From a bacterium (lineage in GTDB: Bacteria; Patescibacteriota; Microgenomatia; Daviesbacterales; UBA10151), in the NCBI GenBank assembly GCA_021786105.1, contig JAJYNW010000006.1, forward strand, positions 7,012-71,011: 64,000 bases of DNA, in the 5' to 3' direction. Of the stretch, positions 7,334-63,554 are shown in pieces (position 1 is the stretch's first letter; every line of letters starts with the position of its first letter). The position numbers and the translations under genes were made by a program. The notes beneath the pieces are model-generated. The model did not search any database. It worked only from the letters and a program-made list of their open reading frames with translations, and was not told where the DNA came from.

Positions 7334-7357
7334 CCACCTAAAGGTGGGGTCAGTTAG
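7334..7357. terminator. GC-rich hairpin ccccacc-taaa-ggtgggg with an A-tract 5' on the plus strand (T-tract on the minus strand)
   Basis: Perfect 7-bp stem immediately after the DUF3800 gene. The U-tract is on the minus-strand side, so it may terminate minus-strand readthrough or act bidirectionally. Confidence 0.5.
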
Positions 7358-7471
7358 TCAGCTAGTTCTTTCGAACTTTTCCCAGCCTGGGAATTTGTCG
7401 CTGATAACTTGTTATAAACGTATACTACCACAAGTACCCTTAAAATACAATCCCAATTCTAGCTTTAAAAA

Positions 7472-7573
7472 ATCGATCCCTGTGGCCAAGATGAATCATT
7501 TTTTACAATGTCAACATTCGCTCCCTAAAAGTAAGGTATTTTTACCCCGAGGACCATTCGGTGAAATTATTAT
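7472..7573. repeat. Copy 1 of a ~110-nt intergenic repeat (tcgatccctgtggc..acattcgc.ccctaaaagtaagg..cattcggt.aa..tatta)
   Basis: ~80% identity with 41716..41848 (copy 2). Copy 2 has an extra 31-nt insertion. The listed ORF 7344..7601 is probably not coding. Confidence 0.65.
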
Positions 7574-7578
7574 ACAGC

Positions 7579-8313
7579 TTAAAGGTATTTTAAATCAATA
7601 ATTTTGAAGGTAGAAAGTATATGTTCAAACATTTCCTGATCTCTTGCGTTATTCGAAATAGTAAAAATTACTCCATCTTTTGTGAAGTAGACTATGTCTA
7701 TTGGTGAGCCTACTGTTTCTGCACTGATTTTCTTAGCATCCAAACCATCCACTTTTAAATTTACCCAGCTATTAGAAATTGGGCTACTAAAAGACATTGA
7801 GAGTTGATCGTTCTGAGGCCATTGTTTGGGATCTACCTCTGAAAGTTGTTTATTTTTAGCAATTTTGATTGTGATTGATGGAATTATGTCGTTGAGTAAA
7901 CCATTATCTTTATTCTGAGCTTCTCCTAAGTAGATAGTCGCTGGGTCTTGGTAAATTAATTTTCCGTATGTTGTATAAGCTGTCCATATACTTGGAACTT
8001 CAACCTCAAAAACAGGATAACCTAAATGAAAAACTTTATATTGATATTTAATATAAGTACTTGAAGTGCTATCTTTAGGTAATGTTGTAGGGCTAATTTG
8101 GGGTGAGTATATAGTTTGTTTAACTTGAGACGATTCTTGATTTTTTTGAGTTCCTAGGTAATATGCACCTCCAGCTATAACGATCAAAAATATCACTACT
8201 CCTACTATCAAGGGAATAAAACCTTTCTGATTTGTTACTGGCGAATTATCAATTTTTGCTTTTGGGATTTCTTTAATAGCAGTTACCTGTGGTTTAGATA
8301 TATATGATTCCAT
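7579..8313 (-). CDS. Membrane-anchored hypothetical protein (single TM 'FIPLIVGVVIFLIVIAGGAYYLG')
   Basis: 244-aa ORF with an N-terminal TM helix. No recognisable domain. Confidence 0.5.
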   Translation of the reverse strand: MESYISKPQVTAIKEIPKAKIDNSPVTNQKGFIPLIVGVVIFLIVIAGGAYYLGTQKNQESSQVKQTIYSPQISPTTLPKDSTSSTYIKYQYKVFHLGYPVFEVEVPSIWTAYTTYGKLIYQDPATIYLGEAQNKDNGLLNDIIPSITIKIAKNKQLSEVDPKQWPQNDQLSMSFSSPISNSWVNLKVDGLDAKKISAETVGSPIDIVYFTKDGVIFTISNNARDQEMFEHILSTFKIIDLKYL

Positions 8314-8404
8314 ACTAGATTAGTATTTCAAAAATCAATCAATAACGCAACTGACCTCAATTATTGTTAACTTCTTTCATCTATTTTTAACTATTATTAA
8401 CTAG

Positions 8405-8477
8405 TGAGCCGGCAGGGGATCGAACCCTGGACCAAGAGCTTAAAAGGCTCCTGCTCTACCGCTGAGCTACCGGCCCA
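8405..8477 (-). tRNA. tRNA-Lys (anticodon UUU)
   Basis: Reverse complement folds as a 73-nt cloverleaf: GGGCCGG-TA-GCTC..GAGC-A-GGAGC-CTTTTAA-GCTCT-TGGTC-CAGGG-TTCGATC-CCCTG-CCGGCTC-A. Anticodon loop is CTTTTAA. Confidence 0.9.
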
Positions 8478-8518
8478 AACCTAATCTGTTTAATCTACTT
8501 TATCTTGCGTCCGGCATT

Positions 8519-8650
8519 ATAGTCGCTTCGTGACTACTCCTGCTCTTCCTGGGATAACCCTGATTTTAACTCATCCGCTGATCGCGGATCAGTATGTAGT
8601 TATCCCGTTAAAGTAAGGTTGCTTACTTTAACCCGCTGAGCTACCGGCCC
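8519..8650 (-). ncRNA. tRNA-Lys-associated structured element A: the first 19 nt of the tRNA-Lys(UUU) 5' end fused to a conserved multi-hairpin sequence
   Basis: Minus-strand reading: GGGCCGGTAGCTCAGCGGG + hairpin AAGTAAG/CTTACTT + GGGATAAC..GTTATCCC + ATCCGC-GATCA-GCGGAT + GAGCAGGAG + hairpin TAGTC..GACTA. A homologous element lies at 44200..44346 with compensatory stem changes. Confidence 0.5.
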
Positions 8651-8813
8651 TCGTCTAAGCACGGTTTATGTTTTCGCTTCAATGAATTGAAGCTTCAACT
8701 TTCACCGGCTTCTCCTCTCAAAATTGCTTCTCAATTTTGGAAAACACAGAAAATCAATCCTGAGTTTAATCAGTATTGTACTAAATTTGCTTTAATTTTG
8801 CTAATATGATCTC

Positions 8814-9776
8814 ATGGTTTTGGGGTTGAATTGGATTGATCTGGTGGTTATTGGGGTGCTTATCCTTTTTGCTTTAGAGGCAGTGGGTAGACCGTTGGTT
8901 TTGGAAAGTCTGGATTTTATCAGCTTTCTTTTGTCTTTCTTTTTCTCCTTTCGGGCTTACAATTTCCCGGCTAAATTTTTTGAAACTCAGTTCCATATTC
9001 CCCACGGATTAAGTTTAGTTTTTGGTTTTATGCTGGTTTGGTTTTTATCTGAAGCTATTTTTTTTCTGCTGGTTAGAATATTCCTGCCAAAAATCCCTAA
9101 GATCAATATTCCCGGGATTAATACTTTATCAATCATTCCGGCACTGCTGCGGGGGCTGATATTTATTGCAATAGCTTTGGTTTTAGTGTCTACTTTTCCC
9201 ATCCAGCCCAATATAAAAAAGAGTGTTTTGGATTCAAAATTAGGCAGCCAAATTCTTAAAGTTTCCTATAACCTGGAAGCTCCGGTTAAACAAGTTTTCG
9301 GCGGTGCGGCTAATGATTCATTAACCTTTTTGACAATTAAACCGAAAACCGACGAGCGGGTGAATTTAGGTTTTCATACTGACCAATTCTCTATCGACGA
9401 GCAATCGGAAAATCTAATGATAGATTTAGTTAACCGGGAAAGAGTCAGCCGGGGGTTAAAAGCTTTGTCGCTTGACGGACGGTTAAGGGAAGTGGGGCGG
9501 GGCCACAGTGCCGACATGCTTAAAAGAGGTTATTTTTCTCATTATTCGCCGGAAGGTTTAACTGTTGCTGACCGGGTAACTAATGCCGGAATTGATTTTC
9601 TAATAGTAGGAGAGAATTTGGCTTATGCTCCTAATGTGGAGCTGGCTCATCAGGGGTTGATGAATTCAGAAGGGCACCGGGCCAATATTTTATCTGCTGA
9701 TTTTAGTAAGATTGGGATAGGTGTTATGGATGGAGGGGTATACGGAAGGATGTTTACCCAAGTATTTAGTAACTGA
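8814..9776 (+). CDS. CvpA-like membrane domain fused to a C-terminal CAP/SCP (PR-1-like) domain
   Basis: N-terminal multi-TM region resembles CvpA. C-terminus has CAP-domain motifs 'GHSADML', 'GENLAY', 'HRANIL..FSKIGIGV'. Confidence 0.55.
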   Translation: MVLGLNWIDLVVIGVLILFALEAVGRPLVLESLDFISFLLSFFFSFRAYNFPAKFFETQFHIPHGLSLVFGFMLVWFLSEAIFFLLVRIFLPKIPKINIPGINTLSIIPALLRGLIFIAIALVLVSTFPIQPNIKKSVLDSKLGSQILKVSYNLEAPVKQVFGGAANDSLTFLTIKPKTDERVNLGFHTDQFSIDEQSENLMIDLVNRERVSRGLKALSLDGRLREVGRGHSADMLKRGYFSHYSPEGLTVADRVTNAGIDFLIVGENLAYAPNVELAHQGLMNSEGHRANILSADFSKIGIGVMDGGVYGRMFTQVFSN

Positions 9777-10360
9777 TGTGGTCTAACAGCAAATTATTAG
9801 CTATTGCTAGTTTTTTAATCGTTATTACTGGTTTTAGCTTTTTGTGGTTTGGACTGAATCAAGCCCCGCCGGTACAACCGTCCCCACTGCCTATTCCTGT
9901 TGTCCAAAATTCTCCTGTTGCCAGCAGTTCAGCCCAGCTTGGAATTACCGGCGAACGAATTGTAGTTTCTCGGGTAGTAGATGGGGATACGATTGAGCTG
10001 GTAGACGGCAAGACTGTGCGTTTTGTGGGAATGGATACGCCGGAAACAGTTGATCCGCGCCGGCCGGTTGGCTGTTTTGGCAAGGAGGCTTCCAATGAAA
10101 CTAAGAGTTTATTATCCGGTAAAGAAGTGATTCTGCAAAAGGATGTATCAGAGACGGATAAGTATAAAAGGTTACTCCGTTATGTTTTTCTGCCTTTGGA
10201 AAACGGCCAGATTCTTTTTATGAATGATTATTTGGTGCGGGAAGGGTTTGCAAAAGTTAAAGCTTATCCTCCGGATACAAAATATAATGAACAATTCAAG
10301 CAGGCGGAAAAAGAGGCCAGGGAAAACAACAGAGGATTATGGGGAAAGTGCGGAAATTAG
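9776..10360 (+). CDS. Secreted thermonuclease (staphylococcal nuclease, SNase-fold) homolog
   Basis: 'VVDGDTIELVDGKTVRFVGMDTPET' is the classic SNase motif. N-terminal TM/signal present. Confidence 0.8.
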   Translation: MWSNSKLLAIASFLIVITGFSFLWFGLNQAPPVQPSPLPIPVVQNSPVASSSAQLGITGERIVVSRVVDGDTIELVDGKTVRFVGMDTPETVDPRRPVGCFGKEASNETKSLLSGKEVILQKDVSETDKYKRLLRYVFLPLENGQILFMNDYLVREGFAKVKAYPPDTKYNEQFKQAEKEARENNRGLWGKCGN

Positions 10361-10403
10361 CTTGCGGTTTCGCTTTTTAACCTTGTGATACACTATTATT
10401 AAC

Positions 10404-10889
10404 ATGAAAAAATTTATTATTCAGACTGTGCTTTTAATTTTAGTTATTGCAATCGCTTTTTTTGTATATCGGGCCAATCCTAGTGTTTCCAATTTGCCTT
10501 TTGTGCCGGCGGCGACAGTTTTTAGGGAAGTGCAGATTAATAACGCAAAATTAAAGGTGGAGGTGGCAGATACGGCCGAAAAAAGGAGCCAGGGTTTGGG
10601 AGGAAGACAAAGTTTAGGCCAGGATGAGGGTATGCTGTTTGTCTTTCCATCTCCTGGTACACATGCATTTTGGATGAAGGGCTTAACTTTCCCCTTGGAC
10701 TTTATTTGGATCAGAGGAGGTAAGGTGATTGATTTGACTCCAAATGTGCCGCCTCCTGCTTCCGGACAACCGGATTCAACTTTACCGATTTATCAACCGA
10801 AGCAGGATGTGGATAAAGTGTTGGAAGTAAATGGGGGAACGATTCAAAGATTAAATATTAAGGTGGGAGATATGATTAAAACTCAATAA
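10404..10889 (+). CDS. DUF192 (COG1430) family secreted protein
   Basis: 'KRSQGLGGRQSLGQDEGMLFVFPSPGTHAFWMKGLTFPLDFIWI' matches the DUF192 pattern. Confidence 0.65.
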   Translation: MKKFIIQTVLLILVIAIAFFVYRANPSVSNLPFVPAATVFREVQINNAKLKVEVADTAEKRSQGLGGRQSLGQDEGMLFVFPSPGTHAFWMKGLTFPLDFIWIRGGKVIDLTPNVPPPASGQPDSTLPIYQPKQDVDKVLEVNGGTIQRLNIKVGDMIKTQ

Positions 10890-12424
10890 TGATTGAAATT
10901 CTGCCTATCAGATTACTAACTCCGGAGGATGCCCGGATATTCGGCAGCCTCAACGTGGCTTTGGCAAAGCTGTCAAGGTTCGGACTTGCTGTCGGAAACG
11001 GAATAGTAATTACCCCTCCGCAATTTAAGCTAAGAGTGGTTTTGGAGCATTTTGACTTTGGGACAAAAGAGGTTTTTGAGCAAACCCTGACTCTTGTCAA
11101 AAAAGAAATAAATTCGATTCCACTGCCAGAGGTTTTAATCAAAGAAACCGGTAAACAGCAACAATTTTTATTAAATGGAGAAAGGATTAAGTCGGTTAAG
11201 GGTTTATGGTTGGTTTTGCTGCATGTTTGGTTTGAGCAGATTAAAGGCCGGCTTTGGGACAGCGGTTTTTATCAAAGTATTACAGAAGATTTAGATCCGC
11301 AGGCGGTAATTTTTGTTAAAAAACTGGAAAGTTTAGGGTTTGCTCACTTTGATCCTTTGCAGGATGATGTGGAGATTTCAGTCAATCATGGGAAATTACA
11401 CCCAAACGACCAAAAGAAAATATTTGATATGGTTCAGCTGGCCAATAAAAAATTGTTTATTCCTCACCGGTATGAATGGATTTTAGACGGAGGCGTAAAG
11501 TTGGTGGGTGTAAAGCCTTATGCTTTTCCCGCTATCATTCCTGATTCTTTTTCTGTCATTGCGAGGAGCGGAGCAACGAAGCAATCTTCAACGGAGCGGG
11601 AGGATTGCCACGCTATCGCTCGCGATGACAAAAAAATTTCTGCTGTTAAAGTTTTTTTTGAATTATCTAAGGGATTTGCCGCTCAAGAAAATATTGACGG
11701 AATATACCTGGATTCGGGAAAAATCTTTGATTTAAACAAACCCCGGGAATCATTTGAGGAGTTGGTTTTGAAACTGGTGGGGTCTGCCAATGATTTCCCC
11801 GGTTCCCCCATACTTTTTAAACTGGCTGACAAATCAGAAGGCATGGGTAAAGTGCGCGGAACTTTACGGTTGCTTCACCAAAGCAGTCTGTTTGAACCGC
11901 TGACGGAGGCTTTAGATTTTGTCCGTCACAAAAAGGGATTTACCAATATCCATATAGTTATTCCTTTTGTCAGAGGAGTGAATGAGTTGTTGCAAATCAA
12001 AAGGGAGCTGGCGGTTAAGAAATTGGCCCGGAAAAATTCTTTGGGACTTTGGATGGAGGTAAGTACACCGGAAAATATCGTGAATCTGGAGGATTATTTA
12101 TTGGCCGGGATTGACGGGGTAGTTTTAAACTTGGATGAACTAATTTCTTACCTGAATGGTTTTAATTCAGCGGAAGGGGAATTGGCTTTTTATAAACAAG
12201 AGGTGGAAGGGTTATTAAAGTTTTTGGAAGACGGGATCAGGTTGCTGCATAAATCAAAAATCCCTTTTATAGCTTATGGCAGTTTAGCCCTTTATCCAAA
12301 AGTGTTGGAATTTTTGGTGGAAAAAGGAGTTTGGGGGATTGTGGTGGAAAGGTATGATGCCCACTCGGCCAAGGATTTATTAAATCAAACCGAAAGAAGA
12401 ATAGTTTTAAGAAAAACGGAATAA
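10889..12424 (+). CDS. PEP-utilising-enzyme-like protein (pyruvate-phosphate-dikinase / PEP-synthase-related TIM-barrel domain); assignment tentative
   Basis: C-terminal region 'IVIPFVRGVNELLQIKRELAV..LGLWMEVSTPENIVNLEDYLLAGIDGVVLNLDELISYL' resembles the PEP-utilising TIM-barrel domain. No clear phospho-His motif was found. Confidence 0.4.
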   Translation: MIEILPIRLLTPEDARIFGSLNVALAKLSRFGLAVGNGIVITPPQFKLRVVLEHFDFGTKEVFEQTLTLVKKEINSIPLPEVLIKETGKQQQFLLNGERIKSVKGLWLVLLHVWFEQIKGRLWDSGFYQSITEDLDPQAVIFVKKLESLGFAHFDPLQDDVEISVNHGKLHPNDQKKIFDMVQLANKKLFIPHRYEWILDGGVKLVGVKPYAFPAIIPDSFSVIARSGATKQSSTEREDCHAIARDDKKISAVKVFFELSKGFAAQENIDGIYLDSGKIFDLNKPRESFEELVLKLVGSANDFPGSPILFKLADKSEGMGKVRGTLRLLHQSSLFEPLTEALDFVRHKKGFTNIHIVIPFVRGVNELLQIKRELAVKKLARKNSLGLWMEVSTPENIVNLEDYLLAGIDGVVLNLDELISYLNGFNSAEGELAFYKQEVEGLLKFLEDGIRLLHKSKIPFIAYGSLALYPKVLEFLVEKGVWGIVVERYDAHSAKDLLNQTERRIVLRKTE

Positions 12425-41668: not shown

Positions 41669-41715
41669 CTAGACGTATTATAGACGATTATTAGACGATT
41701 CGCAATGAGTAAAAC

Positions 41716-41848
41716 TTCGATCCCTGTGGCAAAGACGGTCATCTGTTACCAGTGCCGACATTCGCCCCCTAAAAGTAAGGACTTGTCCTGAGCGAACGAA
41801 GTGAGTCGAAGGATACTTTCACCGCAAGAATCATTCGGTAAAAGTATT
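41716..41848. repeat. Copy 2 of the ~110-nt intergenic repeat, carrying a 31-nt insertion (41783..41813) homologous to the E1 core
   Basis: tcgatccctgtggcaaag..acattcgccccctaaaagtaagg[acttgtcctgagcgaacgaagtgagtcgaagga]tactttcaccgcaagaatcattcggtaaaag aligns with 7472..7573 minus the insertion. The ORF track's 41801..42058 begins inside the insertion. Confidence 0.65.
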
Positions 41849-42294
41849 ATATATACTTGGTGTGTAGTACGTTATGTCAAGCATCGTAATTTTTTAATAA
41901 GGTATGAATGTATGAAAAATAAAAATTATTTAGCTCGATTTGCAAATGCCAGTTCCATTGCCTCATTTATGTTAGGTATTGTTATTGGGAAACTTGGCTG
42001 GAGCAGCAATGCAATAAAGGCTGATCTCCAAAATAAAAATCCAGAGTGTTTTCCGTAAAATACGCGGTATAAATAACTAAGCTTTGATTAGACCGTTATA
42101 TCAATCTAATCCCAGTCTGTTTTTAGCACTATCTGGTGAGCTATCTGTACCAATTTTCGAACTTGTATGATGGAATGATAGTTCTTTATCAGAAGCTTAT
42201 TCAACTATTCCCAAGCGTAGAAAAAGAAGGTTTTAGGGTTTTCTATATAATCAATTTATAGTAGGATGGGGGTTGCAGAAAACCGCCAAATGAA

Positions 42295-43338
42295 CTAATT
42301 ACTTGTAGGTGGATATTCCCAGCAAGAAGGTTGCCCATCTGGAACAGCAACCCACTTCTGCCATTTTGGAGATTTCTTTGCTTGATCCAATTCTTTCCGG
42401 GCTCTTTCTTCTAGTGCTGCCGGAGAGGATCCGTGTTCAACCCTTCGGACAGTCTCATTATATAGAGCTGTTTCTAGTAAAGTTTCACTATCTGCTGCTT
42501 CTCTTGGAATACTAGCACTGTAAAACTCAAGATTGGTCTGTTTTTGCTCTGTCCAACCGCTAAGAAAATGTTCACCTGGGTAGCCAACAGAAACCGAGGA
42601 TATGCATAATTCCTTTCTATCGTTTCCGGAATCTTGTTCTACATTAACTACTGTAATCCGCAAAGCGGTACTGTTTATAGCAGGTTCATATCTTTGTGTT
42701 TCTGGATGGCCGGGTGTGTAGTCACCAGAACCAATATTAAGTCTGCCTTCTACTTTAGGAACATACTGCATTCTCACACTAGGGTACTGATAAAATAGCT
42801 CCAACCCACCCATATCATGTGTCCAGTTATATGCATAATTTTGGTGCGTATAACAAGCTTTTTTACCTGCAATAAAAGTTCGTCCTGCCGCTCTTCTAAT
42901 TTCACCTCTGCCTCCCCATATTGTATCCTTGATATATTGCAACCTTTCCGCTACTCTAAATACTTCTAAGATACCATCCGTTTCTTTTCTTATTAATTCT
43001 TGTTGTTCTTCTTGTAGTTTTATTGCTTCTTGACGCCTCAATTTTTCTGATTTTGCAAATGCCTCTGCTGCGGCTGCCGCTTCTGCTGCTTTCATATTCT
43101 CTAGATCAAGCGCTTTCTGTTGATCTGCCGCTAGCCGTCCATCAACAACTGAATTAATTTTATCTGCAAAATTCTCTAATCCCGGTGGAGGTTGTCCAAA
43201 TGTTGGTTGACTTGTTATTAGAGTAGGATTTTTTGATGGTTCAGTTATTCCGAAAATTCTTCTTAAAAATCCAGGGAGACAACCTTGAGGTTCTTGAGGG
43301 GCAGTTATACCAGTTTGCTTAGGTGCTTCTGCTGACAT
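42295..43338 (-). CDS. Hypothetical protein (Pro-rich N-terminus, Ala/Glu coiled-coil, globular C-terminal domain)
   Basis: 347 aa, no recognisable motif. Lies in the Fic/tRNA-Lys island next to a 2H phosphoesterase. Confidence 0.5.
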   Translation of the reverse strand: MSAEAPKQTGITAPQEPQGCLPGFLRRIFGITEPSKNPTLITSQPTFGQPPPGLENFADKINSVVDGRLAADQQKALDLENMKAAEAAAAAEAFAKSEKLRRQEAIKLQEEQQELIRKETDGILEVFRVAERLQYIKDTIWGGRGEIRRAAGRTFIAGKKACYTHQNYAYNWTHDMGGLELFYQYPSVRMQYVPKVEGRLNIGSGDYTPGHPETQRYEPAINSTALRITVVNVEQDSGNDRKELCISSVSVGYPGEHFLSGWTEQKQTNLEFYSASIPREAADSETLLETALYNETVRRVEHGSSPAALEERARKELDQAKKSPKWQKWVAVPDGQPSCWEYPPTSN

Positions 43339-43379
43339 AACAGCTTGATTTTACCCCTCTAAACCAATAAAGTCAAAAT

Positions 43380-43952
43380 ATGAAGAATTTTAGCTCTTAT
43401 TTTATCGGAATCCCTCTACCACAAAAGTATCAACTGGATTTTGAAACTTTACAGGCCGATGTCTCTCAAATCAGTCCTTTATTTAAAACAACCCACCCTA
43501 AAACTCCCCACATTACTGTTTACTACTTAGATAAACTGCCTCAATCTTCCTTGCCAAAAATAGCAGAAGAAGTTAAGAAACACTTAGAAATACTAAAAGA
43601 AGCTAAATTAAAAGTAGGTGGTTTTGGGTATTTTGGTAAGGATAAACCAAGAATACTATTTGCAGATGTTAAATATCCACCGGAGTTACTGGAATTTAAT
43701 AAGTTAATTTCCGAAAGCTTATCTGTTTATTCAGCATATGATAGCAGCTTACCATTTCGTCCTCATGTTACAGTAGCCTGGGTAGGAGATCCTGATGCTC
43801 AATTAGCTTTTAAAGCTAATATGTCAGAATTAAGATCAATAGTTGAAAAAGTTAACTGGACATTTGATGTTACAGAAGTAGTTTTATATGGAGTTGATAC
43901 TACAAAAAAACCAGAGTACCACGAAAGATTAATAACTATTGAAGTTAGATAA
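43380..43952 (+). CDS. 2H phosphoesterase superfamily protein (LigT/ThpR-like 2'-5' RNA ligase / cyclic phosphodiesterase)
   Basis: Two H-x-T-x motifs: 'HITVYY' and 'HVTVAWV'. Confidence 0.65.
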   Translation: MKNFSSYFIGIPLPQKYQLDFETLQADVSQISPLFKTTHPKTPHITVYYLDKLPQSSLPKIAEEVKKHLEILKEAKLKVGGFGYFGKDKPRILFADVKYPPELLEFNKLISESLSVYSAYDSSLPFRPHVTVAWVGDPDAQLAFKANMSELRSIVEKVNWTFDVTEVVLYGVDTTKKPEYHERLITIEVR

Positions 43953-44107
43953 ATAACCTTATTTTACTGTTTGGGTTTCGAACTATTTTATGCCTAAGAA
44001 AAAGAAGAAATTAACTGACATATTATTAACGAACCAGCACTATAACAGCAAAATTAAATCCAGCAGTTGAATTTTTGAAAACCTATAATCCAACTCTGGA
44101 CAAACTG

Positions 44108-44180
44108 TGAGCCGGGTGGGGCTCGAACCCACGACCGAAGGATTAAGAGTCCTTTGCTCTACCAACTGAGCTACCGGCCC
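44108..44180 (-). tRNA. tRNA-Lys (anticodon CUU)
   Basis: Reverse complement: GGGCCGG-TA-GCTC-AGTTGGTA-GAGC-A-AAGGA-CTCTTAA-TCCTT-CGGTC-GTGGG-TTCGAGC-CCCAC-CCGGCTC-A. Confidence 0.9.
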
Positions 44181-44199
44181 ATACAATCATTATCTATCA

Positions 44200-44346
44200 A
44201 TTGTTAAACGTACTTCCTGCAAAAAACCTTCGGCCTTGCTCTTCCTGGGATGACAATTATTTTAAGCTATCCGCTGATCGCGGATTAATTTGTAGTTATC
44301 CCGTTTAAGCCGGTTTACGGCTTTAACCCAACTGAGCTACCGGCCC
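44200..44346 (-). ncRNA. tRNA-Lys-associated structured element B (first 19 nt of tRNA-Lys(CUU) plus conserved hairpins); homolog of 8519..8650
   Basis: Minus-strand reading: GGGCCGGTAGCTCAGTTGGG + hairpin AAGCCG/CGGCTT + GGGATAAC..GTCATCCC + ATCCGC-GATCA-GCGGAT + GAGCAAGG.... Stem 1 differs from element A by fully compensatory changes. Confidence 0.5.
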
Positions 44347-44450
44347 AAGGTTTATATTCTACCAATTTACGCACTAAAGCGCTACTTTGGCGATAATGTA
44401 ATTTATATACCGCTGAGCTTGTTTGTTTATGATATTCCCAATAAATTGCA

Positions 44451-44927
44451 TTGTCAGGTCCTCTATGTTATATTAGGCCAAATCTGCCCGCAATAAAGAA
44501 TATGGCAGTCGAATGGGATCATGGTAGAAAATCTATTGATGGTAAGGTAGTGTTCAGTGTTCAACATAATTCTGTACTACATCTTGTTTCATTTCCACAA
44601 GCAGTTAAAGAAGAACAAATAAGAGATCTTGTTCAGGAAAGAAAATTACGAGGAGTAACTCCAGATGAATGGGTGGATTTTCTCGCCGATCAAAGATTAG
44701 AAAAAGCTGATTGTGATATTGCCTTAATGTTCACTGGACAATGGGATGATTCTGAGGCCCGTTTTCCGGCTACTATGGTGTACAGGACTCATACCAGGGA
44801 AATGGAGATGGTTTCCAATTGGTTACGAGTATATTGGGAGCCGGGATATGCTTTTCTCTTTGCCGAAGAATCTCCTGAGCACCATCGAGTAAGGAGAATC
44901 ATAGACTCCTCGGAATGGGCAAGATAA
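44451..44927 (+). CDS. Hypothetical protein
   Basis: 158-aa ORF, no motif recognised. Confidence 0.4.
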   Translation: MSGPLCYIRPNLPAIKNMAVEWDHGRKSIDGKVVFSVQHNSVLHLVSFPQAVKEEQIRDLVQERKLRGVTPDEWVDFLADQRLEKADCDIALMFTGQWDDSEARFPATMVYRTHTREMEMVSNWLRVYWEPGYAFLFAEESPEHHRVRRIIDSSEWAR

Positions 44928-44975
44928 TTATTTATTTTAAACCTCTAAGATACAGAATATGCTAGACTGGCTTTA

Positions 44976-45650
44976 ATGGTCTATTTTATTCTTTTCCTAG
45001 TTGAGCTAGTTTTTCTCTTCCTTTTATCCCGACAGCTGGTTCAATCACTGGCTCGTGCAATTTATAAAATATCCAAGAGCCACCGGGTAGTGGTGCATAC
45101 TTTAGCCATTTTGTTTTTACCAGGCACGATTATTCATGAGCTGGCCCATCTGTTATTTGCCGGCGTGATGCTGGTACCAGTGGGGGAAATGAATGTGCTG
45201 CCAGAGATTGAAGGTGATGGGGTTAAATTGGGCAGTGTCCAAATAGCCAAAACTGATCCTTTCAGAAGAATGATTATTGGGGTAGCACCAGTGCTTTTGG
45301 GGATGATTTTAATTTTTTCTATTTTTCTTTTGGTAAAATTAGGCGTCTCACCTTGGTGGCAGGCGGCTCTTGCTTTATATTTTCTTTTTGAAATTGGTAA
45401 TACCATGTTCTCTTCTAAAAAAGATATTGAAGGCAGTGTTCTGTTTGTAATCCTAATTTTAACTCTAGCATTGGTAATCACAATAGCCTTATATTTTCTA
45501 AATCCGAATATCCTGCAAAACTTCTGGTTGTATTTAAATCAGCTAAATCTTGATTTTGCAGCAAATTTTTTTAAACAAGCCTCTATTTATCTAATAATAC
45601 CGGCTGCTTTAGATTTACTGATGATTTTACTGACTAAGCTTGCTACTTGA
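44976..45650 (+). CDS. Polytopic membrane protein with an HExxH motif ('IIHELAHLLFAG'); possible intramembrane metalloprotease
   Basis: Five to six hydrophobic segments. HELAH sits in a predicted TM helix, as in site-2-protease-like enzymes. Tentative. Confidence 0.35.
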   Translation: MVYFILFLVELVFLFLLSRQLVQSLARAIYKISKSHRVVVHTLAILFLPGTIIHELAHLLFAGVMLVPVGEMNVLPEIEGDGVKLGSVQIAKTDPFRRMIIGVAPVLLGMILIFSIFLLVKLGVSPWWQAALALYFLFEIGNTMFSSKKDIEGSVLFVILILTLALVITIALYFLNPNILQNFWLYLNQLNLDFAANFFKQASIYLIIPAALDLLMILLTKLAT

Positions 45651-47541: not shown

Positions 47542-47826
47542 TTAGTCCTTGTCTTGGTGTTCCAATTCATCTTTGTGGATTTCTTCATCAATTCCTAACT
47601 CACCTGGATGATCTTCGTCCTGGTTCTCATACAAACCTGCTTCATGGGCATCATCTAAAGTGTCATCATCTGATTCCGGGTCCGGGGTTGAACCGCTGGT
47701 AGTTTGCTCTCCGGTTTTAATATCTTCCGGAACCGCCTTCTCATGTTTTTGCTGATCAGGCTCAAGCCTTTTAGTTCTTCTGGTCTTAAAATAGATAATC
47801 GTTCTTTGATCTTTTCTTTTGGGCAT
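47542..47826 (-). CDS. Small, highly acidic hypothetical protein
   Basis: 94-aa ORF, Asp/Glu-rich C-terminus. Weak support. Confidence 0.3.
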   Translation of the reverse strand: MPKRKDQRTIIYFKTRRTKRLEPDQQKHEKAVPEDIKTGEQTTSGSTPDPESDDDTLDDAHEAGLYENQDEDHPGELGIDEEIHKDELEHQDKD

Positions 47827-47900
47827 GTTTACAATCTATATCAGGAATATATCTATTGCAACAAAATAGGGCATTAAATTGGTAAGAAAATATTGTGCTG

Positions 47901-47973
47901 CGCCCCTGGAAGGATTTGCACCCTCGACCCTTTCGTCCGAAGCGAAATGCTCTATCTGCTGAGCTACAGGGGC
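47901..47973 (-). tRNA. tRNA-Arg-like (anticodon UCG) with an atypical T-loop (TGCAAAT)
   Basis: Reverse complement: GCCCCTG-TA-GCTC-AGCAGATA-GAGC-A-TTTCG-CTTCGGA-CGAAA-GGGTC-GAGGG-TGCAAAT-CCTTC-CAGGGGC-G. Position 55 is G rather than U. A 10-bp palindrome lies at 47975-48005 just 5' of it. Confidence 0.6.
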
Positions 47974-48076: not shown

Positions 48077-48895
48077 TCATCTTAGGAGTTCCAATGCCCC
48101 GTAAAGACCGGCATCATCATCCAGCGAGCATTTAGTAATCAGGGGAGCCTGGGGAAAGACGGTTAAGAATCGATTTAAATAGCCTTGAACTTTTTCTAAA
48201 GGGATAGACCGGGAGACACTGCCGCCCAAAATAAAAATATCCGGTGACCAATGAACTGCTACGTTAGTCAAACCAATTGCCAAATATTTTGCTATTTCAT
48301 CCCAAATTTGCGGATCAGTAATATTTTCCCCCTTTTGCCCATATATTTTCTCCAAATACGATCCGCCAACATAAGATTCCCAATGGCCTTTGCCGCCACA
48401 AGTGCAAAGGTTGCCTTCCGGCACAATAATTTGGTGTCCTGGTTCAAAGCCTAAAGAGTTTTTATCGATTTTCCCCGCCACAATTCTGACTCCGCCAATG
48501 CCGGTGCCAATGTTAATAAAAGCTACGATACCTTTTCCTTGTCCGGTGCCTTTGGCGGCTTCACCTAAGCCTTCGATGGCTGTATCATTTTCCAGGTAAG
48601 CTTGACAACCAAATGCTTTTTCCAGTTCCAGCTTTAGTGGTTTACCCGCCCAACTTGAAGCGTGGGCACTTTTAGCCAAGGCTGTTTTTTCGTGGTTCAG
48701 AACTCCGGCGATGCCTCCTGCAACGCCTTCAATTTTTTCGCCCCCTGAAAGTTCCCCGGTTATTTTTTTTAGTGTTAGGACGCCTTGACCAAAATCATCT
48801 GGCTTCGAAACTATTTTTGATTCCTTGATGGTTTCTCCGTCCGGAGAAACACCCAACCTCATATTGGTCCCGCCAATATCAAATACAAAATACAT
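48077..48895 (-). CDS. glk: ROK-family glucokinase
   Basis: 'MYFVFDIGGTNMRLGV' at the N-terminus. Zinc motif 'CTCGGKGHWESY'. Confidence 0.85.
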   Translation of the reverse strand: MYFVFDIGGTNMRLGVSPDGETIKESKIVSKPDDFGQGVLTLKKITGELSGGEKIEGVAGGIAGVLNHEKTALAKSAHASSWAGKPLKLELEKAFGCQAYLENDTAIEGLGEAAKGTGQGKGIVAFINIGTGIGGVRIVAGKIDKNSLGFEPGHQIIVPEGNLCTCGGKGHWESYVGGSYLEKIYGQKGENITDPQIWDEIAKYLAIGLTNVAVHWSPDIFILGGSVSRSIPLEKVQGYLNRFLTVFPQAPLITKCSLDDDAGLYGALELLR

Positions 48896-49018
48896 ATTTT
48901 GATTCTAGCATACCATAAAAAATCTATCACCCATCTCTTACTGGATTTTAATTCAATCCTAAAATTGCCGGAGTAAGATTTAAGCGTAAAGGATGAAAAA
49001 TGAGGTAAGGAGGTGAGA

Positions 49019-49219
49019 ATGAATATGATTAAGAAAGGCTTGATTGCGGTAGGCAGCTTGATAACTGCATTTGCATTGACTTTAGGCGTGGCGATGGCTC
49101 AATCACCCTCACCAACGGAAAGCCCAACTATATCACCGAGCCCAACAACAACAGTAAGTCCAACAGCGTCACCTACTGTGCCAACTGGTGCTCCTGCAAC
49201 AGGTATGGGTGGACAGTAA
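49019..49219 (+). CDS. Small secreted Pro/Thr/Ser-rich peptide (signal peptide plus PT-rich tail)
   Basis: TAAGGAGG RBS. Signal 'LIAVGSLITAFALTLGVAMAQ'. It lies immediately upstream of a sortase gene. No LPXTG and no C-terminal TM. Confidence 0.5.
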   Translation: MNMIKKGLIAVGSLITAFALTLGVAMAQSPSPTESPTISPSPTTTVSPTASPTVPTGAPATGMGGQ

Positions 49220-49283
49220 ACCCGTAGGGTGGTAAAATGGCAGGCGTTTTTCGTTCTACGGACACGCCTGCCAGAAATAAGCT

Positions 49284-49928
49284 ATGAAAAAACTGTCCAA
49301 TATCCTGGTTATAATAGTTTTTGCTTTGGTGGGGGTCCTGCTTGGTTTGAGATTTATTCCTCAAGCCCGTCAGGTAAATCAAAGCCAAAGTACGGTCCCA
49401 GTGGTTTCCACCAGTGTTCCGCAGCCGGTCCAAGACCAAAACAAGCCGGAACCTGCCGTAAAAGCCGTAGAAGTAAAACCAGCTGCTGAGCCTCAAACTT
49501 TATCCATTCCTAAATTAGGAGTTAATGCCGCTGTTGAATCCGTAGGACAAGACAGATCCGGTAGGATGGATGTGCCAACGGGGGTAGATAATGTCGGCTG
49601 GTATAGCTTAGGGTACAAGCCTGGAGAAAAAGGAAATGCGGTAATAGACGGACACCTAGATGCAGTAACCGGTGCTCCGGCAGTATTTTATTATCTGGAC
49701 CGGTTGCAGCCTGGTGATCAAGTGATTGTGACTGATAAGAACGGTAAGGACTTAACTTTTGAAGTGACCGTGTCGCAATCATATCCTTTTGATCAGGTTC
49801 CTTTGCAGGAAATCTTTGGGTCCAACGACAAATCAAGGCTCAATTTAATAACTTGTACGGGTGTTTGGAATAGCGGGGCCAGGAATTATTCAAACAGGTT
49901 AGTGGTTTATGCAGAACTAAAAAGCTAA
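49284..49928 (+). CDS. Sortase-family transpeptidase
   Basis: N-terminal TM. Catalytic His 'IDGHLD', Cys 'LNLITCTG', Arg 'RLVVYA'. Confidence 0.85.
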   Translation: MKKLSNILVIIVFALVGVLLGLRFIPQARQVNQSQSTVPVVSTSVPQPVQDQNKPEPAVKAVEVKPAAEPQTLSIPKLGVNAAVESVGQDRSGRMDVPTGVDNVGWYSLGYKPGEKGNAVIDGHLDAVTGAPAVFYYLDRLQPGDQVIVTDKNGKDLTFEVTVSQSYPFDQVPLQEIFGSNDKSRLNLITCTGVWNSGARNYSNRLVVYAELKS

Positions 49929-49980
49929 GGGATTTAGTTTACTTCTTTACACAATCTTTCCCATAAATTATATTTAGGTC

Positions 49981-50997
49981 ATGAAACTTGGTTATATAGG
50001 TTTGGGCAGAATGGGGAAGAATATGGTTTTAAATCTTTTGGGAAAGGGAATTGAAGTGGTGGCTTGGAACAGGTCTCCCCAACCTCGGGAAGAGTTGAAA
50101 AAAGAAGCTGCAGGATTAAAAAGCGGTTCGGAAAATTTGGAAGTTGCTGAGAGTTTGGATGAATTAGTATCAATATTAAGAAATCAAGATCGCCACGTCG
50201 CTGACACTCTCCCGCTTAGCGGGACTATAGCTCGCGATGACAATATTGTAATTTGGTTGATGGTCACTGCCGGGCCGGCAGTTGATGAAGTTATTAATCA
50301 GCTGGCGGAAAAGCTGGATAAAGGTGATTTAGTAATAGACGGCGGTAATTCCCTTTATACAGATACTTTAAGACGAAACGAAATATTAACTAAAAAAGGC
50401 ATTCATTTCATGGATGCCGGTACTTCCGGCGGAGTAGAAGGCGCAAGAGATGGTGCGTGTATTATGGTAGGCGGGGCTCCGGAGGATTATAAGTTGGTAG
50501 AGCCTGTTTTGAAGGCAGCTGCCAAGCCTGATGCTTATGCTTATTTGGGCCCAGTGGGAGCAGGTCACTTTGCCAAAACTATTCACAATGGGATTGAATA
50601 CGGCATGATGGAAGCAATTGGTGAGGGGGCGGCAATATTGAAAAGTTCTCCTTTTCCATACGATTTGCGGGAAGTTTTTCGGATTTATAACAACAGCTCG
50701 ATTATTGAATCGAGATTAGTCGGTTGGACTCTAGCAGAATTGAAGAATGATCCTAAGCTGGAAAACATTTCTTCTGTAATAGGTTCAGGAGGCGGCGCAG
50801 GTAAAACTAAAGGTGAGGGCCACTGGACTGTGGAGCTGGCTAAGAGTTTAGAGGTGGATGTGCCCGTGATTGAAGCTTCTGTGGCAGTCCGGGATAATTC
50901 TGATCAAGATAAAGAGGATTCTCCCAATGGTTTTAGGAATAAAGTAGTAGCCGCCATGCGCTGGCAGTTTGGGCGCCACCCAGTTAAAAAGCATTAA
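49981..50997 (+). CDS. gnd: 6-phosphogluconate dehydrogenase (decarboxylating), short Gnd/YqeC-like form
   Basis: 'MKLGYIGLGRMGKNMVLNLL' is the NAD(P)-binding Rossmann motif. 'GDLVIDGGNS', 'GTSGGVEGA'. Confidence 0.8.
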   Translation: MKLGYIGLGRMGKNMVLNLLGKGIEVVAWNRSPQPREELKKEAAGLKSGSENLEVAESLDELVSILRNQDRHVADTLPLSGTIARDDNIVIWLMVTAGPAVDEVINQLAEKLDKGDLVIDGGNSLYTDTLRRNEILTKKGIHFMDAGTSGGVEGARDGACIMVGGAPEDYKLVEPVLKAAAKPDAYAYLGPVGAGHFAKTIHNGIEYGMMEAIGEGAAILKSSPFPYDLREVFRIYNNSSIIESRLVGWTLAELKNDPKLENISSVIGSGGGAGKTKGEGHWTVELAKSLEVDVPVIEASVAVRDNSDQDKEDSPNGFRNKVVAAMRWQFGRHPVKKH

Positions 50998-51800
50998 TAC
51001 AATATCCTACCTCGGAGGTAGGAGTGAGGTTACACCTAGGGTTTTAGGTAATTTTCAATCTTCCCCATCAATTAATAAATGCTTTACCGTTTCTAAGCTC
51101 TGTGCGTATTCTACCTGGTCTAACACAAATTGTTCATATTTCTTTTTAGTTTTGAACAAAGATAAGATGATATCATTTGTACAAACCCTGTCTATTTGTA
51201 AGCCAATATAAGCTAGGTAGGATGACCAAGAATAATCTTTTAGGTTTTTAACCAAAAACGATGCAATTGGATTTAAATGAATATATCGAGAAACATGAAT
51301 AAGTTGCGTATCAGATTCTATTCTTACAGCTTTAAATTGCCCTTGTAAGAGCGGACCTATTCTATTGTGTTTTGCATTAAAAAATTTTGTATAACTATTT
51401 GAGATTTTATTGATAAACTCAGAAATACCATTTTCTTGGAGCTGTTTTATCAAGAAATGGTAATGATTTGGCATTAAGCAGTAACATAGAATCTCTACAA
51501 TCTTTTCATTCTTCTCAAATTTGAAATCCTTAAACCTATTTAGTTGGGAAAATTGTGGTTTAGGTCCTTGGAATTGGTAATAATAAATTGTTTCCAGGAA
51601 GCGATTGTAATCTCTTTTATCTGTAAAGATTGGCAGTTTTGCTACACCACGATTAAAAACATGATAGATTTGATCATTAACAAGTGGGGTTGTTCGATAG
51701 GGCATATAAATAAACTAAACTATATAAACCCCACGTGTCAATACATTTCTACCTCGGAGGTAGGAGTATAATGATACATAGGGTTTTGTGACTCTAAGCT
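50998..51800. mobile_element. IS200/IS605-family or RAYT-like element: a Y1 (HuH) transposase gene flanked by ~50-bp direct repeats, each with a CTACCTCGGAGGTAG hairpin
   Basis: Left flank 51003-51052 'cctacctcggaggtaggagtgaggttacacctagggtttt'. Right flank 51752-51800 'ctacctcggaggtaggagtataatgatacatagggtttt'. The transposase CDS lies between them. Confidence 0.65.
51055..51705 (-). CDS. tnpA: IS200-like Y1 (HuH) transposase / REP-associated tyrosine transposase
   Basis: 'YHVFNRGV', HuH motif 'LMPNHYHFLI', and 'SRYIHLNP' carrying the candidate catalytic Tyr. Typical Y1_Tnp architecture. Confidence 0.75.
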   Translation of the reverse strand: MPYRTTPLVNDQIYHVFNRGVAKLPIFTDKRDYNRFLETIYYYQFQGPKPQFSQLNRFKDFKFEKNEKIVEILCYCLMPNHYHFLIKQLQENGISEFINKISNSYTKFFNAKHNRIGPLLQGQFKAVRIESDTQLIHVSRYIHLNPIASFLVKNLKDYSWSSYLAYIGLQIDRVCTNDIILSLFKTKKKYEQFVLDQVEYAQSLETVKHLLIDGED

Positions 51801-51871
51801 TTTAGGATATACAATAGCGGAGCTTTATATCCTTACTTTCGGAGTTTTTTTATGCCACTGCTTACACCAGG

Positions 51872-52519
51872 TTACAAAAGTTTAGAGAGAATTTCGGTAT
51901 GGTTTGAAATTACCGGTGCATCATCAGGAATTCTCGGATCTTTATCTGCTAAATCCCGGCAAAAATAGATAAAGCTGCAACCAGCGCTTTTGACTGCCAG
52001 ATAATCGTTATAAGCATCGCCGACATAAACACAATCCTGTATAGGTAGTCCCATCAGCTTAGCGGTTAATAAAATCGGTTCCGGATCCGGTTTACCATGC
52101 TTATACATTTCCCAGGAAACCGTATTATCTTTTAACATTTGTAGGCCAAAAAGATGGTTGTAAATGGAAAGCGCAAAATCCCTGCGGGCGGAGGTACAAA
52201 CCCACACATTTACTCCATGTTCCTTAAGTTTTTTATAAGCATCTAAAAAATTTTCAAACAATCCGGCTGCGTGAGTATTTTTATTAACATATTCTTCTTT
52301 TGCTTGGACAAAACTTTTGCCGTGAGTAGCGAACTTTTCTCCCAGGATCATTTTGGCGGCTGTTTCGTTGGCCATGCCTTTTTGGTTCCGCAGAAAATCC
52401 TGGTTAATATCGATATCGTGGCTTTTGCCGGCTTCCTGCCAGCCTTGTTCATGGAGTTTGGTGGTGGAAATAATGGTTCCATCCAAATCATAAATCACAC
52501 CCTTTTTCTTGATGTCCAC
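51872..52519 (-). CDS. HAD-superfamily hydrolase (beta-phosphoglucomutase / phosphatase-like)
   Basis: Motif I 'VIYDLDGTII'. C-terminal 'YVGDAYNDYLAVKSAG' is motif IV. Confidence 0.8.
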   Translation of the reverse strand: MDIKKKGVIYDLDGTIISTTKLHEQGWQEAGKSHDIDINQDFLRNQKGMANETAAKMILGEKFATHGKSFVQAKEEYVNKNTHAAGLFENFLDAYKKLKEHGVNVWVCTSARRDFALSIYNHLFGLQMLKDNTVSWEMYKHGKPDPEPILLTAKLMGLPIQDCVYVGDAYNDYLAVKSAGCSFIYFCRDLADKDPRIPDDAPVISNHTEILSKLL

Positions 52520-62800: not shown

Positions 62801-63373
62801 ATGGTTATCTTCATCGATGAATCTGGTACTCATAAGCAAGTAGATCATACTACCATAGCCTTAGTCTATGTAGAAATAGCCAATCTGGAAGAATTTGAGA
62901 AAGCAGTAGAAAAGATTGAGGAAAAGTTAAGTATCAAACACTTTCATTGGACAGATGAAAAATGGGAGAAAAGGGGAAAGTTTATTGAGCAAATTTTGAA
63001 ACTGGATTTTTTTGTTAAAGTAGCCATACTAAAAAACCCAATTAAACTTGCTGAAAGCCTAGAAGAAGCCTTAAGACATCTTGTGGTTGAAGAGAATATA
63101 AAGAAAATTATGCTTGATGGTAGAAAACCAAGATGGTATAACCAAAAGCTGAAAAAAGTATTAAGAGATAAGGGTGTATCTGTTAAAAAGATTGTTACTG
63201 TCAGAAAAGATGAATCTAGTCCTGGGATAAGAGTATCTGATTGTTTAGCAGGGTTAATTAGAAGTAATTACGATAATCCCGATTCACAAGCTTCTAGGTG
63301 GTATGACAGGATGAAAAATGCAGAGAAGATTAGACTTGAGATTACTACTTATCCACAAAAAAGCCTCGCTTAA
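62801..63373 (+). CDS. DUF3800-family protein; paralog of 6746..7303
   Basis: 'MVIFIDESGTHKQ'. Colinear with the first copy along its whole length. Confidence 0.6.
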   Translation: MVIFIDESGTHKQVDHTTIALVYVEIANLEEFEKAVEKIEEKLSIKHFHWTDEKWEKRGKFIEQILKLDFFVKVAILKNPIKLAESLEEALRHLVVEENIKKIMLDGRKPRWYNQKLKKVLRDKGVSVKKIVTVRKDESSPGIRVSDCLAGLIRSNYDNPDSQASRWYDRMKNAEKIRLEITTYPQKSLA

Positions 63374-63384
63374 AGCGAGGCCAG
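63361..63384. terminator. Hairpin gcctcgc-ttaaa-gcgaggc directly after the DUF3800 paralog, with an A-tract on the plus-strand 5' side
   Basis: Same geometry as the hairpin after the first DUF3800 copy (7334..7357). Confidence 0.45.
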
Positions 63385-63554
63385 TTGTACAGGTAGTACT
63401 AATTTCTTAGAACTCGGCGGCTCACCGTCCTTTGTCCCTGCCAACTTGTTGTAAATGTATTATATCACAATCTGTATTAAAAACTCATCTCAAAATCAAA
63501 ACACCCATAAACTAAGGTTTAATGAGAAAATAAGTCTGGTATAATTTTCCAAGA

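Follow-up and report, generated by a model that had tools for sequence, protein, structure and literature searches.

In a 64,000-nucleotide (nt) stretch of contig JAJYNW010000006.1, assigned to the Daviesbacterales and referred to in full as the window, each of two tRNA-Lys genes is preceded by a truncated copy of its own 5' part, and the D-loop of each truncated copy carries at position 20 a conserved insert of about 85 nt. These elements, designated A at tRNA-Lys(UUU) and B at tRNA-Lys(CUU), belong to a family found in Candidatus Daviesbacteria (Patescibacteria). The anatomy of the insert, its family, the covariation of its helices, the strand that folds, its position in the tRNA, and its patchy distribution were observed directly. 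The interpretation that we tentatively favor, at slightly less than even confidence, is that the insert is an undescribed structured RNA module that resides in the D-loop of a truncated tRNA copy, is made as a leader or small RNA from the tRNA promoter, was born by partial duplication, and has spread by recombination.

Element B proper runs from 44346 to about 44221 on the minus strand, the strand of every feature given here for B and A. Its first 19 nt (44346-44328), GGGCCGGTAGCTCAGTTGG, are identical to the first 19 positions of the neighboring tRNA-Lys(CUU) (44180-44162), TTGG of the D-loop included, and comprise the 5' strand of the acceptor stem, U8 and A9, the 5' strand of the D stem (GCTC, 44337-44334), and the D-loop sequence AGTTGG. 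The 85-nt insert that follows (44243 to 44327) is supported by a covariance model designated R1 (113.6 bits, E 4.5e-28), by folding, and by covariation. It consists of a P1 hairpin (44327-44303), a helix P2 in which GGGATAAC (44302-44295) pairs with GTCATCCC (44254-44247), a P3 hairpin (ATCCGC-GATCA-GCGGAT, 44285-44269), the unpaired conserved stretches TACAAAT and CTTAAAATAAT, and the tail AGGA. On its 3' side the tRNA sequence picks up in register (44234 to 44242) with A21, the 3' strand of the D stem (GAGC, 44241-44238), which pairs with GCTC at 44337-44334, and AAGG, a remnant of tRNA positions 26 to 30. The element closes with a short hairpin and U-run, CCGAAGGTTTTTT (CCGAAGG-TTTTTT, 44221 to 44233), a weak terminator-like end. 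A similar hairpin and U-run, GCCGAAGGCTTTTTGCAGAGAGTAC, follows the insert at L008, one of the related loci examined outside the window (labels of the form L0xx). A 40-nt spacer (44181 to 44220), homologous to the spacer of the L008 cassette and containing the promoter-like box TTGATAGATAAT (44200-44189), leads to the intact tRNA-Lys(CUU) (44107 to 44180; ARAGORN; Rfam RF00005, 72.1 bits), which starts 166 nt past the start of its truncated copy. The promoter-like box native to this tRNA, TTGGTAGAATATAAACC (44349 to 44365, read by eye, with a -10-like TAGAAT at 44361-44356), now stands before the truncated copy and not before the intact gene.

Element A (8650 to about 8520) is built in the same way, with the CGG D-loop variant of its own UUU tRNA. 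A copy of tRNA-Lys(UUU) positions 1 to 19 with the D-loop AGCGG (8633 to 8650) is followed by an 86-nt insert (8547 to 8632; R1 score, 108.4 bits), then by A21, GAGC, and AGGAG (tRNA positions 21 to 30) and a mini-hairpin, TAGTC-ACGAAGC-GACTA (together 8520 to 8546). The intact tRNA-Lys(UUU) (8404 to 8476; ARAGORN, Rfam) starts 174 nt past the start of the fragment. A and B are identical at 93 of 115 positions of fragment plus insert and at 69 of 87 positions of the insert alone. The alignment score of the two inserts was 48, compared with -10 ± 4.4 (maximum, 4) in 1,000 shuffles, which places it about 13 standard deviations above them. Neither core patterns nor R1 found weaker further copies in the window, where A and B are the only two.

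The original prediction, made from the letters of the window alone, had described B as a second copy of the element at A, and the shuffled alignments and the R1 scores agree with that description. The four shared cores that it quoted (AACGGGATAACTACA, ATCCGCGATCAGCGGAT, TTAAAAT, and ATCCCAGGAAGAGCA) are all present in both copies at identical spacing. The compensatory change that it saw in stem 1 (P1), AAGCCG/CGGCTT in B and AAGTAAG/CTTACTT in A, was confirmed, and its stems hold in full-length context: the tRNA D stem closes the insert both when A and B are folded alone (z scores of -5.3 for A and -2.8 for B) and when they are folded with their surroundings. It was also right that the 5' segment of B carries the D-loop variant of its own CUU tRNA, as all 19 positions attest. 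Its further proposal, that each element co-evolves with its tRNA or was copied from it, stands in its second half. In L012, L017, L018, and L032 the fragment does not match the downstream tRNA, which fits copying better than continuing co-evolution, and in older copies the acceptor strands have diverged. The match of B to its tRNA on the 3' side of the insert is weak evidence in this regard, because GAGCAAGG may equally be a variant of the L008 sequence GAGCAGTG. Two other points required correction. The range 44108 to 44346 does contain the element, but it also takes in the intact tRNA gene. The association with tRNA-Lys is not specific, because the same insert occurs at D-loop position 20 of Gly, Thr, Ile, Pro, Asn, and Val-like fragments. 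In the full-length fold of B, GGCCGAAGG pairs with CCUUCGGUC in the anticodon-stem/variable region of the tRNA, and A has a similar GGACGCAAGA/UCUUGGUCC pairing. Pairing of the module with the variable loop was rejected as a sign of locus-specific co-evolution because L008 has the same GCCGAAGGC beside a UUU tRNA that lacks the complement.

The family was collected with patterns built from the cores, one scanned over GTDB species genomes and one over JGI metagenomes. Both demanded AACGGGATAAC and CCCAGGAA(G), which fixes the 5' strand of P2, GGGATAAC, and part of its 3' strand. Twenty copies, those of the window included, were obtained, 15 of them distinct, together with one chance match; all copies come from Candidatus Daviesbacteria genomes or metagenomes. 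R1, built from 15 copies, scores every copy at 100 to 122 bits. Except at L015, G19 and A21 of a tRNA-like D arm border the insert on its two sides. By identity, the flanks are Lys (window, L008), Gly (L009), Thr (L014, L018, L032), Ile (L016, L020), Pro-like (L017), Asn (L010, L023, L025), and Val/Ile-like (L012). At least seven kinds of tRNA therefore host the module, and most copies are directly upstream of a tRNA gene. At L009, both flanks have the unusual ATTC/GAAT D stem of the adjacent tRNA-Gly, which indicates that both flanks arose locally. L015 stands alone, its ends exact and its surroundings free of tRNA sequence, 12 nt before an open reading frame (ORF). Two weaker variants were found, one at L009 (2494-2391, 39 bits) and the other a two-hairpin form without P3 in a pseudo-tRNA-Asn at L026 (20.5 bits). 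The latter fragment (L026 3700-3775, plus strand) carries a shorter two-hairpin D-loop insert (GTCCTGCACGAAGTGCGGAC GGGAGTCTAAATGACTCCC AGG) that looks like a minimal relative of the module lacking P3. Three pattern scans of IMG/VR viral contigs yielded either no match or chance matches that the covariance model turned down. An attempt to trace the leader of the L032 tRNA-Thr genes through orthologs of a neighboring site-2 protease was abandoned, as the single ortholog fetched was not syntenic.

Folding of the 15 distinct copies together with RNAalifold recovered the D stem, P1, P2, and P3. Across 28 pairs, 96.4% of cells were paired and 10 pairs had changed on both sides, a level of covariation that was reached in 0 of 500 shuffles, and sliding the partners collapsed the pairing. 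P2 is invariant across copies, although the search patterns partly fixed it. P1 contains six G-U pairs that would read C-A on the opposite strand, which indicates that the folded strand is the tRNA-sense strand. The most conserved residues are unpaired: the GG before P1, AAC/GGGAUAAC/NACA, CUUAAAAU, and CCCAGGAAG. The module is modeled as a three-way junction in which the D stem closes the P1 hairpin next to P2, with P2 bearing an internal loop and P3. The three-way junctions of hammerhead ribozymes, purine riboswitches, and signal recognition particle Alu RNA, which were compared by eye only, did not fit in junction strand lengths or core nucleotides.

Several observations point to duplication of a tRNA gene as the origin of these cassettes. 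Among 33 tRNAs in all of the DNA that was fetched, a repeat of the first 16 nt of the tRNA was found upstream of 7, always with the module and at a spacing of 146 to 176 nt; none of the 33 had such a repeat downstream or in antisense. The duplicated stretch also reaches upstream of the tRNA, by about 9 nt at L026, about 30 nt at L008, and at least 65 nt at L010. This variable repeat length argues against a target duplication of the transposase type. At L025 the upstream copy still has its T arm and the greater part of its 3' acceptor strand; 5 of 7 acceptor pairs are left, and a 4-bp stem capped by a tetraloop substitutes for the anticodon arm. L026 retains only an acceptor remnant, and most copies end at tRNA positions 26 to 34. 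The copies can thus be arranged as a decay series from L025, which is near full length, through L026 to most others. In the old copies L012, L017, and L032, the acceptor strand matches no neighboring tRNA, yet the module and the D stem are intact. A tandem duplication of the tRNA gene, either partial (its promoter and 5' part) or whole, followed by decay of all but the D arm and module, would produce such a series. Two smaller structures were seen at related loci: a second partial copy of tRNA-Thr(CGU), positions 1 to 15 with a hairpin of about 50 nt, at L018 (1421-1354, minus strand), and a 38-nt hairpin between the acceptor strand and the D arm of the module-bearing fragment at L014 (5497-5545, plus strand).

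The copies also have segments in common across loci. The sequence following the B insert (GCCGAAGGnTTTTTGCAGnnAGTAC...) and the spacer are homologous to the tRNA-Lys(UUU) cassette of L008, which is in another genome and in which the unit is tandemly repeated. P1 is common to A and L008, and an identical P3 is common to A and B but is not found in L008. The orthologous Ile loci L020 and L016 resemble each other in their spacers and differ wholly in their P3 hairpins, which are compensated, and the P3 of L020 is that of the Thr-locus copies L014 and L018. Such shared and swapped segments indicate that cassettes move between tRNA genes that have a common 5' sequence and that copies exchange segments. 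Recombination or gene conversion could provide the route, using the 5' and D-arm sequence that these genes share, and would leave the target tRNA intact behind a second promoter. Entry into a new type of tRNA might use microhomology at the conserved D arm (TAGCTCAG-GG / AGAGC).

Comparison with close relatives shows where B is inserted. The typA gene 1.3 kb from B has its best named matches in Candidatus Daviesbacteria (Microgenomates, Patescibacteria). In four relatives whose TypA is 90 to 93% identical (L001/L002, L003, L029), tRNA-Lys(CUU) occupies the same place upstream of typA without the element. In L001, L003, and L029, the conserved box TTGTTAGAATATA(C/A)A is directly before the tRNA gene. 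The box of the relatives abuts the tRNA and that of the window precedes the truncated copy, and the element is thus located between the native promoter and the tRNA. Element B is thus a lineage-specific gain, unless the relatives have lost it.

This location suggests a route to expression. Transcription from the native promoter of the tRNA would yield a leader or small RNA of about 125 to 140 nt that contains the module. Its 3' end would form either at the weak hairpin with its U-run (B, L008) or where RNase P cleaves at the 5' end of the following tRNA (L012, L014, L017, L032). For example, the order at L032 is a promoter-like box, CGCTATAAT, the fragment with the module, 27 nt, tRNA-Thr(UGU), and tRNA-Thr(GGU), and at L012, L014, and L017 the next tRNA begins 4 to 10 nt past the fragment. 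Copies whose acceptor strand matches the downstream tRNA (A, B, L008, L009, L016) are followed by a 45- to 70-nt spacer that contains a second promoter-like box and, in A, B, L008, and L009, a hairpin as well. Long spacers with their own promoter box fit the predicted competition of a matching 5' strand for the 3' strand of the tRNA in a co-transcript; alternatively, the pattern could reflect merely the age of the copies. The invariant unpaired nucleotides (AAC-GGGAUAAC-NACA, CUUAAAAU, and CCCAGGAAG) may provide a binding surface for a trans-acting factor, which would tie output of the RNA to tRNA transcription. This binding surface is the weakest step of the proposal and is a guess.

A number of points weigh against interpreting the module as a functional RNA of this kind. 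Transcription, RNA ends, and stability are deduced from promoter-like boxes read by eye, and scans for consensus sigma-70 promoters and for terminators called none of the boxes or terminators that had been identified in this way. The requirement imposed by the search patterns makes the invariance of P2, and part of the sequence conservation, true by construction and likewise bounds the breadth of the family. Swaps of whole hairpins among copies inflate the number of independent compensatory events. No partner protein or RNA was found: the ORFs near the copies differ from locus to locus with no shared protein, and Pfam, NCBIfam, and PDB sequence searches of the ORFs beside the copies revealed no shared or informative family. 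Entry into the D-loop of a new tRNA type is left unexplained, as exemplified by the tRNA-Gly with the ATTC/GAAT D stem, which offers little flanking homology. The absence of the module from orthologous tRNA genes of close relatives indicates that it is dispensable at any one locus, an observation that a selfish element would fit equally well.

It is possible, although rather unlikely, that the module is indeed selfish DNA with no RNA function, such as a non-autonomous miniature inverted-repeat transposable element, a single-strand hairpin element of the IS200 or repetitive extragenic palindrome (REP) type, or a homing footprint that destroys the site of an endonuclease. Such an element would land at the conserved GG/AG of D-loops, only insertions in the redundant 5' copy would survive, and the hairpins would be kept for an enzyme acting in trans. 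The patchy presence among close relatives and the at least seven tRNA identities are expected of such an element, as are the tandem array at L008 and the solitary, exactly bounded copy at L015 that has no tRNA flanks. A Y1/IS200-like protein is encoded in the window (51055-51705), ORFs of the HNH and LAGLIDADG-like types are near some copies (L014, L010), and G-T pairs are tolerated in folded single-stranded DNA too. However, the palindromes that flank the Y1 gene (CTACCTC-C-GAGGTAG, only two in the window) are unlike P1 and P3, and the LAGLIDADG-like ORF also occurs at tRNA-Asn loci without the module (L027, L028). The length of the repeats, 19 nt to more than 84 nt, is not that of a fixed target-site duplication; copy number is low, and all copies have the orientation of the tRNA, with a promoter in front. 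Stems are less conserved than unpaired nucleotides, and the module is intact in old, diverged fragments. Two candidate enzymes were discarded, the Y1/IS200-like gene as mobilizer of the module because its flanking palindromes are unrelated, and a 234-amino-acid (aa) helix-turn-helix and LAGLIDADG-like ORF (L010, L023) because it sits upstream of intron-bearing tRNA-Asn with or without the module. The hallmarks of REP elements with their associated transposases (RAYT) or of IS200/IS605 miniature elements, which are cognate hairpins and many copies in both orientations, were not found. We consider it unlikely, but worth stating, that the module represents instead a new class of tRNA-targeting element that enters D-loop position 20 of many tRNA identities by an undescribed mechanism at the DNA or RNA level. 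It would survive because its entry, or recombination at a later time, duplicates the promoter-proximal half of its target; the tRNA would thus remain functional and the element would capture the tRNA promoter for an RNA of its own, which could be catalytic or a guide in this process.

Control in cis is a further possibility, and an improbable one in our estimation: the module would be a riboswitch-like leader or protein-binding attenuator governing read-through into the tRNA(s) or, at L015, translation of the ORF. In L032, L012, L014, and L017, the transcript of tRNA operons would begin with the module, a conserved structured domain between promoter and tRNA(s) as expected of an aptamer in a leader. 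As is typical of aptamers, the junction nucleotides are conserved and the peripheral stems vary. In B and L008 the module is immediately followed by a hairpin and U-run, and the tail of L015, AGGAAGGA, about 10 nt before the ORF start, resembles a ribosome-binding site. Nevertheless, no common expression platform is apparent, with sequences past the D stem that differ per locus and distances to the tRNA that vary from 4 to 70 nt; the separate promoter-like box after several copies would bypass attenuation, and orthologous tRNAs of close relatives lack the module. We know of no precedent for riboswitch control of tRNA genes. The original prediction had suggested testing for an integrative-element signature; on such a reading, the 5' tRNA repeat would be an attachment-site (att) duplication left by an island at tRNA-Lys. 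A direct repeat of a tRNA segment does flank the inserted DNA, in L004, L008, and L028 a gene for a large serine recombinase adjoins tRNA-Lys or tRNA-Asn, and B and L008 could owe their kinship to a Campbell-type step through the 5' sequence that the Lys genes share. However, these recombinases are at tRNA 3' ends and not at the 5' repeat, and such repeats are only 146 to 176 nt apart. Those of B (166 nt) and A (174 nt) enclose no ORF, and the module is inside the duplicated segment and not at its edge. Pfam scans of window ORFs (42295-45650, 47542-47826, and 48077-52519 around B; 26-12424, less 10889-12424, around A) detected no recombinase or integrase, although a Y1 transposase-like ORF is about 7 kb away. 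The regions downstream of the two tRNA-Lys genes, whose synteny had been proposed as a check, have no genes in common and are similar only in a non-coding repeat of about 100 nt. An integrative scar is thus largely refuted and very improbable. An intron in, or an expansion of, the D-loop of a functional or split tRNA gene is just as largely refuted. The position is a tolerant one with both flanks in register, L025 is a near full-length tRNA, and Patescibacteria are rich in tRNA introns (PMC13011429). However, the fragments end at positions 26 to 34 with no 3' exon, and an intact tRNA of the same identity adjoins them; at L025, the tetraloop stem replaces the anticodon arm and only 5 of 7 acceptor pairs remain. 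The module has no group I match, whereas true group I introns were detected in L010, L026, L027, and L028, and the 5-nt junction strands are not those of a bulge-helix-bulge.

Returning to the interpretation as a structured RNA module, no Rfam 15 family overlaps the module at gathering thresholds or even at E<=10, and the literature that was searched described nothing comparable. The fragments themselves, positions 1 to 19 plus 21 to about 30, are not called as tRNAs; ARAGORN and Rfam call only the intact genes at 44107-44180 and 8404-8476. In attL/attR tRNA repeats, as here, part of a tRNA is duplicated, a functional tRNA is kept, and DNA lies between, and tandem arrays such as that at L008 are possible. 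The difference is that here the 5' end is repeated, about 166 nt apart, with no recombinase between and the module inside the repeat at position 20.

Introns offer a second comparison. Work by Fujishima et al. in 2010 is said to have described related introns at many positions of archaeal tRNA genes and intron transposition in Thermoproteales. There too, one conserved insert is found in many tRNA species, D-arm positions included, implying spread from tRNA to tRNA. However, those introns are spliced at a bulge-helix-bulge out of complete, functional genes, whereas the hosts here are truncated, in a bacterium, with an intact tRNA alongside, and the junction strands of 5 to 6 nt (AGYGG) and 5 nt (AGGAA) around a 4-bp D stem do not make a bulge-helix-bulge. 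Group I introns, which occur in tRNA genes of Patescibacteria (Nakagawa et al. 2026, PMC13011429), are structured tRNA-gene insertions in the same phylum. The module, in contrast, is about 85 nt with three helices, in the D-loop and not the anticodon loop, with no 3' exon, and the group I model RF00028 gave no match to it at E<=10. The two kinds of insertion coexist at L010, where a tRNA-Asn fragment carries the module and the genuine tRNA-Asn is interrupted at 35/36 by a group I intron.

YrlA, mascRNA, and transfer-messenger RNA (tmRNA) resemble the module in being RNAs built on part of the tRNA fold. They mimic the elbow of the acceptor and T arms and are stand-alone genes, whereas the module keeps only the 5' strand and D arm, copied from a neighboring tRNA. 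The only matches to the Rfam models of YrlA and mascRNA were on the real tRNA (E 0.6 to 1.6; RF02553, 15.7 bits, E 1.6). The T arm and acceptor stem of a Y RNA are missing from the element, and no Ro60 (TROVE) protein was detected in the Pfam-scanned ORFs, which are a minority of the window ORFs. Another parallel is offered by orphan structured RNA motifs such as DUF3800-I, drum, and skipping-rope, whose junctions are strongly conserved and which have a terminator on the 3' side (Weinberg et al. 2017, PMC5737381). Like the module, these motifs were found comparatively, are small, highly conserved, and multi-helix, have no assigned function, and in some cases have terminators. They differ in that none is embedded in a tRNA fragment, and the module lacks an associated protein gene.

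Patescibacteria have very small genomes with a single copy of most tRNA genes. Daviesbacteria nonetheless retain cassettes of about 170 nt before many tRNA genes. If the module is a functional RNA, it would constitute a new class of structured RNA wired to tRNA transcription, in a group from which hardly any regulatory RNAs are known. If instead the module is selfish, it would show a way to colonize essential single-copy tRNA genes without killing them, with the D arm as the recombination target. tRNA finders pass over such fragments, and as a result the tRNA-proximal "intergenic" DNA of these genomes is unannotated.

Other features of the window and of the related loci were recorded. The third tRNA gene of the window is tRNA-Arg(UCG) (47900-47973; ARAGORN/Rfam), and all three tRNA genes are on the minus strand. 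The Y1/IS200-like gene (51055-51705, minus strand) encodes a 216-aa transposase-family protein (PF01797, E 1.4e-8) and is flanked on both sides by the palindrome CTCCTACCTC-C-GAGGTAGGA (51005-51023, 51745-51763), an arrangement that is RAYT/REP-like, with only two such palindromes in the window. Two DUF3800 genes are each accompanied by a DUF3800-II RNA (RF02961) on the opposite strand, within about 50 nt past the gene: the gene at 6746-7303 (plus strand) with the RNA at 7348-7415 (minus strand, 73.8 bits), about 1 kb downstream of tRNA-Lys(UUU), and the gene at 62801-63373 (plus strand) with the RNA at 63379-63452 (minus strand, 55.5 bits). The non-coding repeat of about 100 nt (7466-7575 and 41710-41850, plus-strand alignment; 82% identity over 72 nt) has a T-arm-like start, TTCGATCCCTGTGGC; nothing else is similar in the stretches that lie downstream of the two tRNA-Lys genes. 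The copy at 41710-41850 has a 33-nt insertion, and its minus-strand fold has a z score of -4.1.

Outside the window, a family of ORFs of about 231 aa, with an N-terminal helix-turn-helix, a LAGIAFYAGEG motif, and no Pfam match, lies immediately upstream of tRNA-Asn genes that bear a group I intron at 35/36 (L010 1630-929, minus strand; L023; L026 3001-3696; L027 3001-3690; L028 3001-3696). At L010, the stop codon of the ORF is inside the 5' end of tRNA-Asn. This family is a candidate free-standing homing endonuclease for tRNA introns; tRNA introns of Patescibacteria are mostly without homing endonuclease genes (Nakagawa et al. 2026, PMC13011429). In different Daviesbacteria, genes for large serine recombinases adjoin or overlap the 3' ends of tRNA-Lys(CUU) at L004 (488-2017), tRNA-Lys(UUU) at L008 (667-2244), and tRNA-Asn at L028 (3953-5491), which suggests that islands integrated at those 3' ends, separately from the module. 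At L032, the 3' end of tRNA-Thr(GGU) is directly repeated (TTCCCGCTGTCGGCTCC) about 60 nt downstream (5353-5430, plus strand), resembling a small att-type scar, and a sub-threshold match to 6S RNA (RF00013, 32.6 bits versus a gathering threshold of 46.4 bits; 4741-4903, plus strand) lies between the site-2 protease gene and the tRNA-Thr operon.

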